Virus record (IMG/VR): IMGVR_UViG_2706794665_000014
Strand: one strand, 5' to 3'
From: a virus
Taxonomy: Duplodnaviria; Heunggongvirae; Uroviricota; Caudoviricetes
Length of the DNA: 9,711 nt
Shown here: positions 1-9,711 of the stretch, piece by piece
Layout: the number at the start of each line of letters is the position of its first letter
How positions within the stretch are numbered: position 1 is the first letter of the stretch
Notes under the pieces: generated by a model
Told to the model about the DNA's origin: nothing
The model's database searches: none
What the model saw: only the letters and a program-made list of their open reading frames with translations
Position numbers and translations under genes: made by a program

Positions 1-45
1 GACAAAGTCATCGGGCATTATCTGAACATAAAACACTATCAATAA
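1..45 (+). CDS. insB: IS1 transposase InsB, last 14 codons (5'-partial)
   Basis: In-frame translation from base 1 gives DKVIGHYLNIKHYQ followed by TAA at 43-45. Confidence 0.8.
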   Translation, partial: DKVIGHYLNIKHYQ

Positions 46-60
46 GTTGGAGTCATTACC
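1..60 (+). mobile_element. IS1 insertion sequence, 3'-terminal 60 bp (end of insB plus right terminal inverted repeat); the rest of the element lies upstream of the window
   Basis: Bases 1-60 match the canonical IS1 right end as I recall it: insB C-terminus DKVIGHYLNIKHYQ with TAA at 43-45, then the terminal repeat ending GTTGGAGTCATTACC at 60. The reverse complement of 38-60 (GGTAATGACTCCAACTTATTGAT) is an imperfect copy of the left repeat at 9622-9644. Confidence 0.88.
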
Positions 61-1002: not shown

Positions 1003-1293
1003 TTAACTGTTTTTGCCTGGATACTGTCTTCGAGAATGCACAATATTTACTACTTCTATGCTTGATGCTGTTACTCGGTAAAGGATGATGTAGTTAGGAT
1101 GAGTTACAATTTCACGAAGACCAAGAACTCGCTCGCTTGGAGGATACAGGTAAGGATGCTCTGTGAGCGGCAAAACGGATGTTTCAATTCGAATTTTCAT
1201 TCTGCGTGCTGCCGCGGGATTTTCTTTAGCTATGTAGGCTACGATCTGGCGCAAATCATCACGAGCAGATGGTAGCCATAAAACGGGTAACAT
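1003..1293 (-). CDS. Type II toxin, ParE/RelE superfamily (96 aa)
   Basis: Size and sequence pattern typical of ParE/RelE toxins (MLPVLWLPSARDDLRQIVAYIAKENPAAARR...GLREIVTHPNYIILYRV...IVHSRRQYP). Start overlaps the upstream antitoxin stop by 1 nt (TAATG); GAGGTG RBS lies inside the antitoxin 3' end. Confidence 0.8.
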   Translation of the reverse strand: MLPVLWLPSARDDLRQIVAYIAKENPAAARRMKIRIETSVLPLTEHPYLYPPSERVLGLREIVTHPNYIILYRVTASSIEVVNIVHSRRQYPGKNS

Positions 1294-1487
1294 TATTCAC
1301 CTCTGTGAGTTGCAGCAGCAATTTGGGCAATAATTTGTTCCATTTCCGCCATTACCTCATCATGCGGAATCGCCGGGCGGGGATCCGCGAGGCTTGCTGC
1401 TACTTTGGCCCGCAGCCATTCGTTGTAACTATTTTCTTGCTCAACTGTCTCAAATTCTGAAACCATTGGGGAAAGGACTGTACTCAT
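1293..1487 (-). CDS. Putative antitoxin (addiction-module antidote-like, 64 aa) paired with the ParE/RelE toxin
   Basis: Small acidic ORF immediately upstream of and overlapping the toxin gene. GAGGAG RBS 9 nt before ATG 1487. Sequence (…NEWLRAKVAASLADPRPAIPHDEVMAEMEQII…) resembles antidote proteins that partner RelE/ParE toxins. Confidence 0.65.
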   Translation of the reverse strand: MSTVLSPMVSEFETVEQENSYNEWLRAKVAASLADPRPAIPHDEVMAEMEQIIAQIAAATHRGE

Positions 1488-1506: not shown

Positions 1507-2007
1507 TTAGGCGCGACGGCCTTTTTGTGCAGCTAACCACCGCGCAACCGTACGATCCATTGATTCTTTTTTATCTTTCATCTCCTGAAGCATGTGTTCT
1601 TGATCTTCTTTCGGAAAAGCTCTGAACGTATGGATTAAATCTCGTTCCATCGGCTCTACGGCAAACGGTAGTTCATCCTCTGTTTGTTCTGTGTCTGCTG
1701 GTAATGCGACTATGTTATCTTGCTGTGGTTCTCGACAATACATCCTTGCAATTTGCAGCAAATCTACCATGTCTGGCCTGATTGACTCAGGGGGAACTTT
1801 CAGTAAGCCAGCAAACTTTAGAACAGCCTCAAGGTTTAGTGGGGTTTGACCATTTAGGTAGTGACTTACCGCCCCTTGTGTTGAAAACCCCATAATTTCC
1901 GCCGCACGTTCCTGAGTCAATCCCAACTGAGATTTCTTTGCCATCCAGATTTCTTTCAGTCTTCTGGCGGCGTTGAGGTCGGTGTCTGACAATGATTTTC
2001 TTTTCAT
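1507..2007 (-). CDS. Prophage repressor, XRE-family helix-turn-helix (cI/RacR-like, about 166 aa), no recognisable LexA-like peptidase domain
   Basis: N-terminal HTH (LGLTQERAAEIMGFSTQGAVSHYLNGQTP). Divergent from the cro-like gene. Preferred start ATG 2007 (MKRKSL...); the ORF-track start at 2037 is GTG with no RBS. The C-terminal half is acidic with no Ser/Lys peptidase motif seen. Confidence 0.8.
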   Translation of the reverse strand: MKRKSLSDTDLNAARRLKEIWMAKKSQLGLTQERAAEIMGFSTQGAVSHYLNGQTPLNLEAVLKFAGLLKVPPESIRPDMVDLLQIARMYCREPQQDNIVALPADTEQTEDELPFAVEPMERDLIHTFRAFPKEDQEHMLQEMKDKKESMDRTVARWLAAQKGRRA

Positions 2008-2014
2008 ACATCCA

Positions 2015-2084
2015 ATTCTAATAAGATTGCTAATCACTTTGAAATAGTATCACTATTTACTTTTAAAAATAACAGTGCTATTAA
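2015..2084. promoter_or_regulatory. Divergent promoter/operator region (O_R-like) between the repressor and cro-like genes
   Basis: Three copies of the AATAG-N5-CTATT palindrome at 2020-2034 (weak), 2043-2057 (perfect, AATAGTATCACTATT) and 2068-2082, spaced 23-25 bp. Candidate rightward promoter: -35 TTTACT 2056-2061, -10 TATTAA 2079-2084. Candidate leftward promoter on minus strand: -35 TTCAAA (complement of 2038-2043), -10 TAGAAT (complement of 2015-2020), which places the transcript start at about the repressor ATG. Confidence 0.45.
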
Positions 2085-2875: not shown

Positions 2876-3953
2876 ATGGCTAACGCCTGGCTCAGATTAT
2901 GGCATGACATGCCAAATGACCCTAAGTGGCGAACAATTGCCAGGGTGTCAGGGCAGCCAATTGCAACAGTGATGGCAGTGTATATCCACCTCCTGGTGAG
3001 CGCGTCACGAAATGTCACGCGAGGTCACATTGATGTCACGACAGAAGNNNNNNNNNNNNNNNNNNNNNNNNNNNNNNNNNNNNNNNNNNNNNNNNNNNNN
3101 NNNNNNNNNNNNNNNNNNNNNNNNNNNNNNNNNNNNNNNNNNNNNNNNNNNNNNNNNNNNNNNNNNNNNNNNNNNNNNNNNNNNNNNNNNNNNNNNNNNN
3201 NNNNNNNNNNNNNNNNNNNNNNNNNNNNNNNNNNNNNNNNNNNNNNNNNNNNNNNNNNNNNNNNNNNNNNNNNNNNNNNNNNNNNNNNNNNNNNNNNNNN
3301 NNNNNNTGTCACGACGAGTCACGACAGATACAGATAAAGATACAGATAAAGAAGATCAAAACACTATGGTCCATGGCGTAAAAAACGCCACGAACCAGGC
3401 AGGGGATGTTCAGACCGTCAATCCTGGTCAGCCAGCAGGCTCGACACCGGAAGCCGATTCAGCGTATGCGCTGAAAGCCGATTCGGGCGCTGTGCAGCAG
3501 GTGATGACCGCAAGGCCGGAGCAATCACTCCAACTGCAGCAGCCTGAAGCCGATTCCGCCATTCAGCGGGAAGCCGATCGGGTAGCCCCGGAAAACACCG
3601 GGCAGCCTGTGGGACGAGTGGATTATCCGGATGTGTTCGAACAGGTCTGGCGGGAATACCCGTTGCGTGCCGGGGCAAACCCGAAGAAATCCGCATTCAG
3701 TGCCTGGAAGGCCAGATTGCGCGAGGGGGTGCCACCAGAGACCATGCTGGATGGTGTGAGGCGTTACGCGAGATACCTGGCGGCGACCGGGAAAGCGGGA
3801 ACGGAATTTGTTCAGCGAGCGACGACGTTTTTTGGGCCGGACCGGAATTTTGAAAACCCCTGGTTGCTCCCGGTAAGCGGCACGAACAACCAGCGTTGTG
3901 TGAATCATATTTCTGAACCGGATACCGAAATTCCGCCGGGATTCAGGGGGTGA
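2876..3953 (+). CDS. Phage replication initiator / replisome organiser (YdaU-DUF1376-like N-terminus), origin iterons inside the coding sequence; frame not continuous across the masked gap (possible frameshift/pseudogene, or two ORFs)
   Basis: ATG 2876 after AGAAGAGG RBS. N-terminus MANAWLRLWHDMPNDPKWRTIARVSG... is typical of phage replication proteins. The C-terminal portion (frame of 3012-3953) ends in a TGA that overlaps the dnaC-like ATG. The frame before the gap (codons at 2876+3n) ends at TAA 3335-3337 after the gap, while the frame reaching 3953 is different. Confidence 0.5.
3004..3350. repeat. Replication-origin-like iteron array (TGTCACG-type repeats at about 10-bp spacing) followed by an AT-rich tandem repeat; the middle is masked
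   Basis: GTCACG at 3004-3009, TGTCACG 3013-3019, GGTCACA 3023-3029, TGTCACG 3034-3040; after the gap TGTCACG 3307-3313 and AGTCACG 3317-3323; then GATACAGATAAA twice (3327-3338, 3339-3350). Confidence 0.5.
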
Positions 3954-4696
3954 TGTGGCATGANNNNNNNNNNNNNNNNNNNNNNNNNNNNNNNNNNNNN
4001 NNNNNNNNNNNNNNNNNNNNNNNNNNNNNNNNNNNNNNNNNNNNNNNNNNNNNNNNNNNNNNNNNNNNNNNNNNNNNNNNNNNNNNNNNNNNNNNNNNNN
4101 NNNNNNNNNNNNNNNNNNNNNNNNNNNNNNNNNNNNNNNNNNNNNNNNNNNNNNNNNNNNNNNNNNNNNNNNNNNNNNNNNNNNNNNNNNNNNNNNNNNN
4201 NNNNNNNNNNNNNNNNNNNNNNNNNNNNNNNNNNNNNCTGATGACCGGGTGCACGAATTTTGTGTTCAGCGGTAAAACCGGCACCGGGAAAAATCACCTT
4301 GCAGCGGCGATGGGTAACCGGCTGATGGCGAAGGGGCGCAGCGTGATTATCGTCACCGAGTCTGATGTCATGAGCGTGTTGCATGACAGCTACGACAACG
4401 GCAAATCCGGTGAAAAATTTTTACAGGAGCTTTGCGGGGTTGATTTGCTGGTCCTGGATGAAATAGGCATTCAGCGGGAGACGAAAAACGAGCAGGTGGT
4501 ATTGCACCAGATAATTGATCGCCGGACAGCATCACTGTGCAGTGTCGGGATGTTAACAAACCTGAATCATGCCGCAATGAGCACGCTTCTTGGTGAGAGG
4601 ATTATGGACCGCATGACCATGAACGGTTGTCGGTGGGTGACGTTTAACTGGGATAGCTGGCGTTCAAATGTCAGCTTTCCGGGAGTTGTGAAGTAA
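3953..4696 (+). CDS. DnaC-like replicative helicase loader (IstB-like AAA+ ATPase; YdaV-like)
   Basis: Walker A FSGKTGTGKNHLAAA and Walker B LLVLDEIG. ATG 3953 overlaps the stop of the upstream replication gene (TGATG). The N-terminal ~90 codons are masked (3964-4237). Confidence 0.85.
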   Translation: MWHXXXXXXXXXXXXXXXXXXXXXXXXXXXXXXXXXXXXXXXXXXXXXXXXXXXXXXXXXXXXXXXXXXXXXXXXXXXXXXXXXXXXXXXXXXXXLMTGCTNFVFSGKTGTGKNHLAAAMGNRLMAKGRSVIIVTESDVMSVLHDSYDNGKSGEKFLQELCGVDLLVLDEIGIQRETKNEQVVLHQIIDRRTASLCSVGMLTNLNHAAMSTLLGERIMDRMTMNGCRWVTFNWDSWRSNVSFPGVVK

Positions 4697-5458: not shown

Positions 5459-5911
5459 ATGGCAAANNNNNNNNNNNNNNNNNNNNNNNNNNNNNNNNNN
5501 NNNNNNNNNNNNNNNNNNNNNNNNNNNNNNNNNNNNNNNNNNNNNNNNNNNNNNNNNNNNNNNNNNNNNNNNNNNNNNNNNNNNNNNNNNNNNNNNNNNN
5601 NNNNNNNNNNNNNNNNNNNNNNNNNNNNNNNNNNNNNNNNNNNNNNNNNNNNNNNNNNNNNNNNNNNNNNNNNNNNNNNNNNNNNNNNNNNNNNNNNNNN
5701 NNNNNNNNNNNNNNNNNNNNNNNNNNNNNNNNNNNNNNNNNNNAAGAAACCATCTGTGGTTGATCCGGACCTTATCTGGTCATTACCGGACGGAGAAATA
5801 CGCCGCTACGACAGACATCAGAACATAATCTGTCGCGAGTGCCGGAAGAGTGAAGTTATGCAGCGTGTACCGGCTTTCTATCAGGGTGATTTTCAGGAGG
5901 CGGTACTGTGA
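5459..5911 (+). CDS. Hypothetical protein, central part masked
   Basis: ATG 5459 follows the previous stop by 15 bp. After the gap the same frame continues through ...CRECRKSEVMQRVPAFYQGDFQEAVL to TGA 5909-5911. Other frames are also open across the N block, so continuity is unproven. Confidence 0.4.
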   Translation: MAXXXXXXXXXXXXXXXXXXXXXXXXXXXXXXXXXXXXXXXXXXXXXXXXXXXXXXXXXXXXXXXXXXXXXXXXXXXXXXXXXXXXXXXXXXXXXKKPSVVDPDLIWSLPDGEIRRYDRHQNIICRECRKSEVMQRVPAFYQGDFQEAVL

Positions 5912-5968
5912 GTGAAATTAGCTATCAGGCTTCAATTACCGCTGGCATTCGCATCAAAGGAGAGGAGC

Positions 5969-6325
5969 ATGGAAATAAAACCAGAAGATGAGTTAAGCAA
6001 TATTGTTTTATTTCCGGTAAAAGAGGATAACCCTCGTAATCAGGTTAATTTTCTTTATGAGCCATCGGAAAGACCATATTGCCATCACGCTTCTGTCCGG
6101 GTTGACGAAAAAGAGCGTCAGGTCCGCTGTAAAATTTGCGGTGCAGTTGTGGAGCCATTTGACTGGATGCTCTCTGTGGCGAAAAGAGAAACCAGACTGG
6201 CAGATGATGTAAGGCTCTTGCGCCAGGAGGAGCGGGAAAGGCGAAAAAATATAGAAAAGCTAATCCAGATTGAGCGTAATGCGAAAGCGCGGATACGCAG
6301 GGTGACAAAATATAGCCCCGAATAA
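5969..6325 (+). CDS. Hypothetical protein (118 aa), zinc-ribbon-like Cys/His cluster plus basic coiled-coil C-terminus
   Basis: ATG 5969 after strong RBS AAGGAGAGGAG. Motif YCHHASVRVDEKERQVRCKICGAVV, then an Arg/Glu-rich helix (LLRQEERERRKNIEKLIQIERNAKARIRR). Confidence 0.6.
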   Translation: MEIKPEDELSNIVLFPVKEDNPRNQVNFLYEPSERPYCHHASVRVDEKERQVRCKICGAVVEPFDWMLSVAKRETRLADDVRLLRQEERERRKNIEKLIQIERNAKARIRRVTKYSPE

Positions 6326-6539
6326 TCAAGGTTATTTCTGGAAGTCAAGTCGTGAGTGATGAGGACTAACAAATACGGTGAACTCGATAAAGAGATTCAG
6401 GACGAACTGGAGGCCAGGAATGATTGACAAATCACCAAGTGAGTTCAGCTACAAAGATTTATTGTCATAACGGGTTATGAGATCGACTTGGTGCGTGATA
6501 TTCTTCGGGCCAGTTTGCTATGCGCCACCATGAGATGTT

Positions 6540-8372
6540 ATGGCCCGCATGTTTGATACATTAGGATTTTACATTATGAATGTGCAACATTTTGATTTTT
6601 TTACAGATAATGAGTTTTCTAATCTGGAAAGATATCAAACTTGTAAAGCCATGGCCAAAGGTTATGCGGGCAATTACAAAACCGGGCAGTCAAGGTTGAT
6701 GCATGCCCGCTCATACTGCTTCAGCATCGTAGCTGCATATTGGGATACCCTTGCAAAAAAGCAAAAAAGCAGCATTAAAATGAGGGCAGTACCGCACACT
6801 GTTTACATAGAAGACATTCCATGTGATGCACGCGAGCTCGCTGAACGAACAGGTGAGCTTATTGCTCAATTTCCGGCGGAGGACGCTGGATATCTGATTG
6901 GGTCAATTTATACGGTAATGCTGCCATCCGCTTACCGTTCGGAATTGGGGGCTTACTATACCCCCCCACCTTTGGTAGCGCGTCTCTTGGACCTGGCTGA
7001 AAAGTCTGGTGTTGATTTTTCTCATGCATCGGTTATTGATCCTGCGTGTGGTGGCGGTGCATTTTTGGCACCAGTAGCCATTCGAATGTTAAAAAAAGAC
7101 AAGGGGTCTTCCCCTGAATGGATGTTGAGGAGAATCAGTCGTCGTTTAAAGGGGATAGAGATCGATCCATTTGCGGCTTGGATGAGTTTGGTATTGCTCG
7201 AATCTGTACTAATGCCACTATGTGTAAAGGTAAAACGTAGATTGCCTGAAGATACAATTATTGTTGCTGATGCGCTTCAGCAAGATAAATTTTCTGGTTA
7301 TGATCTTGTGGTAGGGAATCCGCCTTACGGACGTGTCACTCTCGATATTAAAACGAGAGAAAAATATTCTCGTTCGTTATTTGGTCATGCAAATCTATAT
7401 GGATTGTTCACCGACTTAGCTGTTCGCATGGTTAAAGAGAAAACAGGAGTTATTGCATTTCTTACGCCAACTTCTTTTCTTGGTGGGCAGTATTTCACCG
7501 CGCTGCGAACCCTTTTGACCGAAAAAACTACTCCGTATGCCCTTGATTTCGTCACTGACAGGGATGGGGTCTTTGACGATGTTCTCCAGGAAACAATGTT
7601 GACAGCATTCAAGGCGGGAGAACATAAAGTTCGGGCCCAGGTATCCTCACTTGTCCCTAAGGGGTTGAACAAAGCAAAAATTGAGAAAATAGGTAATGTT
7701 GATATAGAAAAAGGTGGAGCAACGTGGCTTTTGCCACGCGTTAAAGATGATGCCTGTTTTCTTAATGTATTAAAACAGATGTCTACGCGTTTAGCTGATC
7801 TGGGATACTCAGTCTCTACAGGTCAGTTAGTCTGGAATCGATTTAAGTCGCAGTTGCGTACGACGAAAGGAAAAAATAGCTACCCATTAGTCTGGGCGGA
7901 ATCAATAACTTCAGCTGGTTTTCGTTTTAGTGCAGACAGAAAAAATCATGTTCCCTATATCGATATAACCCCACAACAGGGTTTCCTTGTGACAAAATCT
8001 GAATGTGTGCTTGTTCAGCGGACAACATCGAAGGAACAGGACAGAAGGATTTTAGCGGCAATTTTACCTCAGGGATTTATAGATGAAACTGGTGGCGTAG
8101 TAGTTGAAAACCATATTAATATTGTATATTCAAACGGATTGTTCTCTGCGGTTCGCCCTGATGTTATTGATATGCTACTTAATTCGCATGTTGTCGATCG
8201 GGCGTTCAGGTGTATAAGCGGAAGTGTTGCTGTTTCGGCCTATGAATTGAATTCAATCCCGTTGCCTTCTCTGGAGCAGGTGATGGAGATTCAATCGTTA
8301 ATTGATGCTGGCGTCCACAGACGGATTATTGAGAGAACTATCGCTGGTTTCTATGGAGTGATGATTGCATGA
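6540..8372 (+). CDS. N6-adenine DNA methyltransferase, gamma class (Eco57I/TaqI-like), 610 aa
   Basis: Motif X GAYYTPPPLVARLL (about 6948-6989), motif I VIDPACGGGAFL (about 7032-7067), motif IV VVGNPPYG (NPPY at 7317-7328), in the order X-I-IV. Alternative start ATG 6576 with AGGA RBS. AT-richer than the upstream phage genes. Confidence 0.85.
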   Translation: MARMFDTLGFYIMNVQHFDFFTDNEFSNLERYQTCKAMAKGYAGNYKTGQSRLMHARSYCFSIVAAYWDTLAKKQKSSIKMRAVPHTVYIEDIPCDARELAERTGELIAQFPAEDAGYLIGSIYTVMLPSAYRSELGAYYTPPPLVARLLDLAEKSGVDFSHASVIDPACGGGAFLAPVAIRMLKKDKGSSPEWMLRRISRRLKGIEIDPFAAWMSLVLLESVLMPLCVKVKRRLPEDTIIVADALQQDKFSGYDLVVGNPPYGRVTLDIKTREKYSRSLFGHANLYGLFTDLAVRMVKEKTGVIAFLTPTSFLGGQYFTALRTLLTEKTTPYALDFVTDRDGVFDDVLQETMLTAFKAGEHKVRAQVSSLVPKGLNKAKIEKIGNVDIEKGGATWLLPRVKDDACFLNVLKQMSTRLADLGYSVSTGQLVWNRFKSQLRTTKGKNSYPLVWAESITSAGFRFSADRKNHVPYIDITPQQGFLVTKSECVLVQRTTSKEQDRRILAAILPQGFIDETGGVVVENHINIVYSNGLFSAVRPDVIDMLLNSHVVDRAFRCISGSVAVSAYELNSIPLPSLEQVMEIQSLIDAGVHRRIIERTIAGFYGVMIA

Positions 8373-9469
8373 ATCTGCCTGTTGTTCCCCCATTGAATGT
8401 TATCCGGGAAAGATTACAATTAATTTTCCCTGAAGGGACTGAGAATCGTGGATATTTAATTCGGGAAATAGCTGCAAAAACAATTTTTGTCATGTTTTAT
8501 GCTGGTGCGGTTGAGGGGCTGGGGCGATGGATAAGGCCCAGCCAGGTTGTAAGTATGGGAGATTCGCAGGCTGCTCTTACTGATGATGCGTCCAGAGAAA
8601 GCTGGGTAAAGATGACTTTCTCTAAACAAAAGATAAGGCCTGCTGATGCATGGTATGCGGAAAATACGCGTGAGCCAATACGTGATGAAACTATAAAAAA
8701 TGGCCTAATACCTTGCAATGCAATTGTTGAGCGTAAAGGTATACCCACCACATCCTCTCGTCCTCGTTACAGTTTGAATCGCTCTTTTGCAGCACTCTTT
8801 GATGCCGGGCTTGAAGGAGATTCGCTGCTGAGTGCAATAAGTTCCTGGCAAGAAAATCATTTGAACAAAGCCGCTCTTGCTAGNNNNNNNNNNNNNNNNN
8901 NNNNNNNNNNNNNNNNNNNNNNNNNNNNNNNNNNNNNNNNNNNNNNNNNNNNNNNNNNNNNNNNNNNNNNNNNNNNNNNNNNNNNNNNNNNNNNNNNNNN
9001 NNNNNNNNNNNNNNNNNNNNNNNNNNNNNNNNNNNNNNNNNNNNNNNNNNNNNNNNNNNNNNNNNNNNNNNNNNNNNNNNNNNNNNNNNNNNNNNNNNNN
9101 NNNNNNNNNNNNNNNNNNNNNNNNNNNNNNNNNNNNNNNNNNNNNNNNNNNNNNCCAGATATTATTTTGATTGATTTGGGAGAGGACCGAACGGGTTCGG
9201 ACATGCTTGTAGTTTTCACTGAAGTAGTTGCGACAGATGGGCCTATAAACAGGGAACGAAAAGTTACTCTCACTCATTTGGCTATTGACGCTGGGTTCAG
9301 CGAGAAAAATCTTGCATTCCTTACGGCATTTATGGACAGAAGTGCTCTGCCTTTTAAAAAGGCAATACCAGAATTGGCGTGGGGATCTTATGCATGGTTT
9401 GCTTCTGAACCGGAGCACTTAATTGATCTTCGGGATGGTTATCCGGTAAAGATCAGCCAGAGAAAATGA
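8369..9469 (+). CDS. Methyltransferase-coupled partner protein, 366 aa; putative restriction endonuclease (possibly BsuBI/PstI-like), family not verified
   Basis: ATG 8369 overlaps the MTase stop (ATGA) with GGAG about 10 nt upstream, so operon coupling is clear. No catalytic motif recognised by eye; about 90 central codons are masked (8884-9154). Function inferred from context. Confidence 0.6.
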   Translation: MNLPVVPPLNVIRERLQLIFPEGTENRGYLIREIAAKTIFVMFYAGAVEGLGRWIRPSQVVSMGDSQAALTDDASRESWVKMTFSKQKIRPADAWYAENTREPIRDETIKNGLIPCNAIVERKGIPTTSSRPRYSLNRSFAALFDAGLEGDSLLSAISSWQENHLNKAALAXXXXXXXXXXXXXXXXXXXXXXXXXXXXXXXXXXXXXXXXXXXXXXXXXXXXXXXXXXXXXXXXXXXXXXXXXXXXXXXXXXXXXXXXXXXPDIILIDLGEDRTGSDMLVVFTEVVATDGPINRERKVTLTHLAIDAGFSEKNLAFLTAFMDRSALPFKKAIPELAWGSYAWFASEPEHLIDLRDGYPVKISQRK

Positions 9470-9621
9470 CCAAAGTTTGATATCCGCCACGCCCTGAAGG
9501 ATGGGGGTTTTACGGTGCACTGGATAAAAAATCGGTTTCATAGATTTGCCCACCGTGGTATACGCCTGCGATAAAAACTTTATTGTCATCAACGGCAAAA
9601 GCAATAATTGTTCTGTGGCGG

Positions 9622-9711
9622 GGTGATGCTGCCAACTTACTGATTTAGTGTATGATGGTGTTTTTGAGGTGCTCCAGTGGCTTCTGTTTCTATCAGCTGT
9701 CCCTCCTGTTC
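9622..9711 (+). mobile_element. IS1 insertion sequence, 5'-terminal 90 bp (left inverted repeat and start of insA); the element continues past the window end
   Basis: GGTGATGCTGCCAACTTACTGAT at 9622-9644 is the IS1 terminal repeat, followed by the canonical IS1 leader and the insA start. Same orientation as the IS1 end at 1-60. Confidence 0.88.
9677..9711 (+). CDS. insA: IS1 InsA, N-terminal codons (3'-partial)
   Basis: GTG 9677 then GCT TCT GTT TCT ATC AGC TGT CCC TCC TGT TC, giving (M)ASVSISCPSC, the InsA N-terminus. Confidence 0.7.
   Translation, partial: MASVSISCPSC

Follow-up and report, generated by a model that had tools for sequence, protein, structure and literature searches.

The PstI/BsuBI/SdaI family of Type II restriction endonucleases is characterized by site-specific, Mg2+-dependent cleavage at a palindrome that contains TGCA. 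PstI and BsuBI recognize CTGCA^G, and the recognition site of SdaI is CCTGCA^GG. The endonuclease domain PF06616 is placed in the PD-(D/E)XK superfamily (PMC3424549). In SdaI the winged-helix domains of two subunits are found on one palindromic site (PMC1874659). According to PMC3045609, SdaI has an EXXK variant of the motif together with Arg260 on the second conserved helix; both aid catalysis, R260 more than K251. PMC2441816 names the R.SdaI subfamily as an example in which the K residue has migrated. For the BsuBI/PstI-type cassette of Stx2a prophages (R.EcoGIII/M.EcoGIII type), cutting at CTGCAG and biochemical activity of the enzyme type are reported (PMC3893438).

The locus studied here belongs to a stretch of 9,711 nucleotides (the window) from the IMG/VR virus record IMGVR_UViG_2706794665_000014, assigned to Caudoviricetes. 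A previous examination of its letters by a model, which we call the sequence-only reading, reported that the protein encoded next to a methyltransferase gene has no nuclease signature visible by eye. This open reading frame very probably encodes a two-domain Type II restriction endonuclease of the PstI/BsuBI/SdaI family with an E213...P257-D258...E279...R291 active site, coupled to its cognate methyltransferase. We demonstrated its family membership, its fold, the equivalence of its residues to those of SdaI and their conservation. It is an ordinary PD-(D/E)XK restriction enzyme that is already annotated, and its active-site variant is already known. In particular, exactly this protein is RefSeq WP_001053102.1, “BsuBI/PstI family type II restriction endonuclease”, and it is so annotated in E. 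coli FDAARGOS_943.

The endonuclease and SdaI have the same architecture, namely a winged-helix N domain and a PD-(D/E)XK C domain, and the PD, the glutamate and the arginine of the next helix align between them (SdaI R260 corresponds to R291 here). The two enzymes differ in several respects. Their identity is about 21–30%, the N domain is longer here (360 aa in total vs 323 aa in SdaI), and the hairpin between the strands that carry the aspartate and the glutamate is 6 residues longer (PD-x20-E vs PD-x14-E). Moreover, K251 of the SdaI EXXK corresponds to Ala282.

Reading frame and masked block

The reading frame is real and full length; it runs from ATG to stop and shares 4 nt (ATGA) with the methyltransferase gene, whose TGA is overlapped by the ATG. 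With the run of 271 N letters within it, 171 residues can be read on the N-terminal side and 104 on the C-terminal side, in agreement with the sequence-only reading (about 170 and about 105). That reading had proposed to obtain the masked sequence, and we recovered it from nine loci (L001–L009), most of which have flanks identical to the window. All nine loci encode the same 360-aa endonuclease.

In the loci with identical flanks the true length of the masked block is 253 nt. The figure of 271 bp given for the mask by the sequence-only reading is thus correct as the length of the N-run and incorrect as the length of the DNA that it covers. None of the four N-runs of the window has the right length: 259, 274, 277 and 271 nt are masked, compared with 246, 284, 247 and 253 nt in L002–L009. 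Because the length of the N-run is wrong, the endonuclease consists of 360 aa and not of 366, and the 366-codon reading frame is an artefact that the mask has produced. We also considered whether the block carries an 18-nt in-frame insertion and rejected this, since all four masks of the window have arbitrary lengths.

Encoded in the masked block are a linker helix, the helix of motif I, which carries E213 (AVIEVFAP), and the initial beta strands of the nuclease core. The peptide DIILIDLGEDRTGSDMLVVFTEVVATDG, which was quoted in the sequence-only reading, is located at 9158–9241. The features of the cassette are collected in Table 1.

Table 1. Features of the cassette, with positions in the window
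Feature	Position	Strand	Basis
N6-adenine DNA methyltransferase, 610 aa	6540..8372	+	Pfam, PADLOC, motifs
Endonuclease gene, true product 360 aa	8369..9469	+	WP_001053102.1; protein identical in nine loci
N-terminal winged-helix DNA-binding domain, residues 10–172	8396..8883	+	includes Y96-A-x-N-x-R101-E102-x-x-R105-D106
Masked block; true length 253 nt, third base of codon 172 to codon 256	8884..9154	+	restored from L001–L009
Unmasked part of the PD-(D/E)XK catalytic domain, residues 257–349 of the PF06616 match	9155..9433	+	PF06616
P257-D258, putative catalytic “PD”, equivalent to SdaI P232-D233	9155..9160	+	phmmer alignment to 2IXS
E279, acidic residue at the end of the third core strand, equivalent to SdaI E248	9221..9223	+	alignment to SdaI
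A282, position of SdaI K251 (the “missing lysine”)	9230..9232	+	alignment to SdaI
R291, on the helix after the E279 strand, equivalent to SdaI R260, putative basic catalytic residue of the family	9257..9259	+	alignment, conservation
R318, second near-invariant arginine of the catalytic domain	9338..9340	+	conservation

Fold and active site

Two Pfam domains were recognized in the protein. The N-terminal HTH domain PF17728 matches the unmasked fragment at 4.8e-31 and the restored protein at 1.2e-30 (107–108 bits, with a cutoff of 27 bits). The endonuclease domain PF06616 matches the unmasked fragment alone at 1.9e-20 and the restored protein at 9.3e-45 (152 bits), where the match spans positions 2–152 of the 154 positions of the profile. 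These were the only Pfam families that matched the restored protein at E <= 0.1. The absence of HNH, GIY-YIG and PLD motifs noted by the sequence-only reading holds at this threshold. The PADLOC model REase_II also matches the endonuclease (2.8e-128); among NCBIfam models no match was found. SdaI (PDB 2IXS) is its sole sequence relative among solved structures (phmmer, 1.8e-16).

A structure search on a predicted model had been suggested as well. The model that we used is an AlphaFold prediction (mean pLDDT 89) for a homologue with 89% identity, based on an alignment of 105 sequences. The C-terminal half of the model consists of a helix (203–219), strands 223–230, 233–238, 259–263 and 274–280, a helix (289–301) and a strand (309–315). 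This predicted order of elements is that of the alpha-beta-beta-beta-alpha-beta core of PD-(D/E)XK nucleases. In a Foldseek search against the PDB, SdaI was the one significant match (3.9e-17). All matches of the fold search were PD-(D/E)XK nucleases, with no HNH, GIY-YIG or PLD folds among them.

The core is therefore shared with canonical PD-(D/E)XK enzymes of the EcoRV/BamHI type, including an aspartate where the second strand begins and an acidic residue carried by the third one. The difference from them is that there is no lysine two residues past the acid; instead, an arginine is located 12 residues downstream, on the next helix. The end of the strand reads E279-V-V-A282, so that the glutamate is not followed by a lysine and the canonical (D/E)-x-K is absent. 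In this detail the sequence-only reading was accurate.

Conservation was assessed in two alignments. The first one includes 105 relatives with 29–89% identity to its first sequence (P0001); the second one includes 75 sequences, that is, representatives of 50%-identity clusters, SdaI and the Stx2-phage enzyme. E279 is invariant (105/105 relatives). R291 is present in all 105 relatives of the first alignment and in 73/75 sequences of the second one; the corresponding counts are 104/105 and 73/75 for D258, 102/105 and 69/75 for E213, and 104/105 and 71/75 for R318. The column of A282 in the first alignment contains A in 85 relatives, V in 5, H in 5, S in 4, Y in 3 and F in 2, and K in none; in the second alignment K is found in SdaI alone, and the Stx2-phage enzyme has Thr. 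In total, 57 columns are conserved at >= 85% in the 105-relative alignment, and the present endonuclease keeps 57 of 57.

Judging by these columns, the lack of the lysine characterizes the PstI/SdaI family and is not peculiar to this gene. The conserved arginine of the following helix would take the role of the canonical lysine, as has already been published for SdaI. A textbook nuclease motif is not seen by eye because the lysine of the canonical (D/E)xK is replaced by this arginine. The alignment to SdaI suggests that E213, D258, E279 and R291 cluster in space, and the catalytic roles proposed for individual residues follow SdaI mutagenesis by homology, to the extent that it is summarised in PMC3045609.

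By analogy with SdaI, the protein, which is translationally coupled to its cognate N6-adenine methyltransferase, would work as follows. The winged-helix domain (residues ~10–172) would read the target, as a dimer on one palindromic site. The PD-(D/E)XK domain (residues ~188–349) would cut the DNA in a metal-dependent manner, in which D258 and E279 (and E213) may hold the metal ion and R291 may supply the positive charge in place of the canonical lysine. Such dimeric binding and metal dependence, as well as activity in the host, are what can be expected of a relative of SdaI.

The conclusion of the sequence-only reading that there is no PD-(D/E)xK signature was wrong. Directly behind the mask come Pro-Asp and, further on, E279 and R291, all of them unmasked. 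The motif appeared to be lacking for two reasons: the canonical (D/E)xK was what had been looked for by eye, and of the four motif residues one is concealed by the mask. In practice, members of the PstI/SdaI family should be recognized by E...PD...E...R and not by PD-(D/E)xK. The gene gives no indication of a new nuclease, and the result has little import beyond annotation.

Partner, distribution and target sequence

The methyltransferase is intact. It matches the Pfam families Eco57I (1.7e-13) and N6_Mtase (2.1e-9) and the PADLOC model MTase_II PDLC03338 (1.8e-300), and its motifs have the gamma-class order, with motif I (DPACGGGAF) at 7038–7064 and then motif IV (NPPY) at 7317–7328. It is a homologue of the methylase from the Stx2-phage BsuBI/PstI-type cassette. 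The same order of genes, methyltransferase and then endonuclease, was found in Burkholderia cepacia and Rhodocyclus tenuis.

The endonuclease and the methyltransferase are each present on at least 1000 public contigs, among which Shigella sonnei predominates. The whole cassette was found by megablast in 2 of 5426 complete E. coli genomes with 99.3–99.9% identity, and it is very common in S. sonnei. An exact match of the methyltransferase is present on many Shigella-type chromosomes. One of them is CP000038.1, which the unmasked segments of the window match at 100% or near. A published survey counted 982 Type II systems among 994 S. sonnei genomes (PMC13293514). We infer that these 982 systems are the present one; this identification is our own and not a statement of the survey. 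It seems that S. sonnei has this cassette as its standard Type II system.

The nearest enzyme that is tied by a paper to a known activity is the BsuBI/PstI-type enzyme of the Stx2 phage, and the identity of the present endonuclease to enzymes of known specificity is 21–30%. The Stx2a-prophage cassette resembles the present one in that it is borne by a prophage of E. coli/Shigella, has the methyltransferase gene before the endonuclease gene and includes both Pfam families. Its endonuclease has the E...PD...E...R pattern, also with no lysine at the position of SdaI K251. In contrast, the endonucleases are only about 27% identical and the methyltransferases 26% (over 355 aa that include the C-terminal part, E 5e-27), and the Stx2a-prophage proteins are shorter (317 aa and 459 aa vs 360 aa and 610 aa here). 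The Stx2a cassette is located in another prophage, next to cI, whereas the present cassette follows replication genes. The target specificity of the two systems may differ as well.

The stretch Y96-A-x-N-x-R101-E102-x-x-R105 is conserved throughout the family. The residues around its last arginine, which belongs to a putative recognition helix, vary: the present enzyme has IRDET where SdaI has FRKKT, so that R105 is followed by D-E here, by K-K in SdaI and by R-Q in the Stx2-phage enzyme. One may speculate that the acidic D-E leaves room for another specificity.

A literature search found no biochemical or methylome data for the present system, no motif assigned to its methylase and no usable S. 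sonnei methylome. Within the window CTGCAG occurs once and ATGCAT five times, counts that are uninformative on specificity. We tentatively suggest, with more doubt than confidence, that the branch with endonucleases of ~360 aa and methyltransferases of ~600 aa may read a target other than CTGCAG or CCTGCAGG. S. sonnei would then have, almost universally, a specificity not yet characterised, and the cassette could be an addiction module that stabilises the IS1-flanked prophage remnant.

Genomic context and alternative readings

The cassette is part of what is left of a decayed lambdoid prophage. The final 60 bases of an IS1 open the window, and the initial 90 bases of a further IS1 in the same orientation close it. 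This further copy interrupts a relE/parE toxin gene, which is intact in E. coli FDAARGOS_943.

A position between two IS1 in a decayed remnant, next to a toxin gene that has itself been cut, is what one would expect if the endonuclease were an inactivated relic that has kept its fold and lost cutting in an IS-ridden Shigella prophage remnant, with the methylase alone still acting. The same reading is favored by a frameshifted 344-aa variant (P0002) in the public cluster. In addition, no controller-type gene was found upstream, unlike in Burkholderia and Rhodocyclus, where a 78-aa HTH gene precedes the cassette; no counterpart of this gene was detected by tblastn in the window. However, the reading frame is full length, is identical in the nine loci and recurs on the contigs counted above. 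All 57 family-conserved residues are retained, every catalytic one included, and the coupling to an intact methylase is preserved. It is because the conserved columns are kept in a full-length protein that is identical across loci and coupled to an intact methylase that we read it as a Type II enzyme that is probably active; loss of cutting is improbable.

A far less probable alternative, to which we assign almost no weight, is that the real catalytic residues are in the masked block or that the protein uses another nuclease chemistry (HNH, GIY-YIG or PLD). The sequence-only reading had named the masked block as one of its three options, and E213, one of the motif residues, does fall there. 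For the rest this option was mostly wrong, since D258, E279 and R291 are readable in the C-terminal segment. Besides E213, the restored block (residues 172–256) contains no further invariant charged residue; its other positions conserved at >= 85% are R172, P192, L199, G202, S204, S205, F215, L220, P223, S229 and L256. Another chemistry is opposed by the Pfam search described above and by the fold search, which found PD-(D/E)XK nucleases only. The second option, a divergent endonuclease fold, does not agree with the ordinary PD-(D/E)XK core; what survives of it is that the lysine is off its canonical place, a feature published for SdaI (PMC3045609, PMC2441816). The third option, that the protein is not a nuclease, is not supported, given the matches of both domains (1e-30 to 1e-45), SdaI as the sole significant structural match and the 57 retained positions. 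The three options are thus mostly unsupported, and the two-domain PD-(D/E)XK endonuclease is the reading that we retain.

The prophage genes include those of a DUF1391 protein, a PaaA2/ParE toxin-antitoxin pair, a cI-like repressor and a YdaT-family protein. Further prophage genes encode a replication organiser, a DnaC-like ATPase, a DUF1627 protein and a DUF977 protein.

IS1 borders and toxin-antitoxin genes

The R-M cassette is carried on a prophage remnant of approximately 9.56 kb located between two IS1 copies. An IS1 end lies at each edge of the window and both copies have the same orientation; thus the remnant is bracketed like a composite transposon. The IS1 insertion truncates a RelE/ParE-family toxin gene of the window. 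In E. coli FDAARGOS_943 (locus L001, 11093-11667) this toxin gene and its ParD antitoxin gene are both intact. We also note that the remnant of the toxin gene comprises the last 36 codons (...IAFAVDDNKVFIAGVYHGGQIYETDFLSSAP*).

Another toxin-antitoxin pair, ParE and PaaA2, adjoins a gene of an HTH repressor-like protein, which is 176 aa long in the window vs 145-166 aa as called in related loci. The Pfam assignments for these three genes were taken from the precomputed gene table. Their arrangement resembles the three-gene PaaR2-PaaA2-ParE2 module of E. coli O157 prophages.

Features of the window and of two loci with a homologous cassette
Feature	Location	Strand	Remark
IS1, 3' end	1-60		window start
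ParE toxin and PaaA2 antitoxin	1003-1487	-	96 aa and 64 aa
HTH repressor-like gene	1507-2037	-	
Masked block	3048-3306		259 nt, true length 246
Masked block	3964-4237		274 nt, true length 284
Masked block	5467-5743		277 nt, true length 247
137-aa ORF	5912-6325	+	hypothetical in RefSeq
Masked block	8884-9154		271 nt, true length 253
RelE/ParE-family toxin gene remnant	9510-9621	-	
IS1, 5' end, second copy	9622-9711		window end
78-aa ORF, Burkholderia cepacia	L011, 1965-2201		
78-aa ORF, Rhodocyclus tenuis	L013, 1654-1890		

Masked blocks

The lengths of the N runs were compared with those in loci having identical flanks, and all four blocks differ from the true length. Therefore, the lengths of ORFs that span the masks, as well as their reading frames, are unreliable.

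Region upstream of the cassette

A conserved 78-aa ORF precedes the homologous cassette in B. cepacia and R. tenuis; its end lies 3 nt upstream of the methylase. This ORF weakly matches an Xre-type HTH (HTH_3, E 0.003, below the cutoff) and may encode a controller protein. No trace of this ORF was found in the window by tblastn; a 214-nt gap (6326-6539) occupies that place. Directly upstream of the cassette, the 137-aa ORF weakly resembles a TFIIB-type zinc ribbon (E 2e-4, also below the cutoff).

Variants of the endonuclease

The public cluster representative P0002 is a 344-aa variant of the endonuclease whose C-terminus is frameshifted from ...PFK(K) onward, which corresponds to approximately 9360-9469 of the window. 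The A-run ttttaaaaagg, near 9363-9373, marks the frameshift point; either an error in the sequence of a single Logan assembly or true slippage at this run could account for the shift.

In some relatives, for example protein P0155 (727 aa) and the PADLOC model PDLC03359 (840 aa), the endonuclease domain is fused to the C-terminus of a methyltransferase, forming a single-chain R-M system. These fusions agree with the remark that MTase domains are present in a few members of the SdaI subfamily (PMC2441816).
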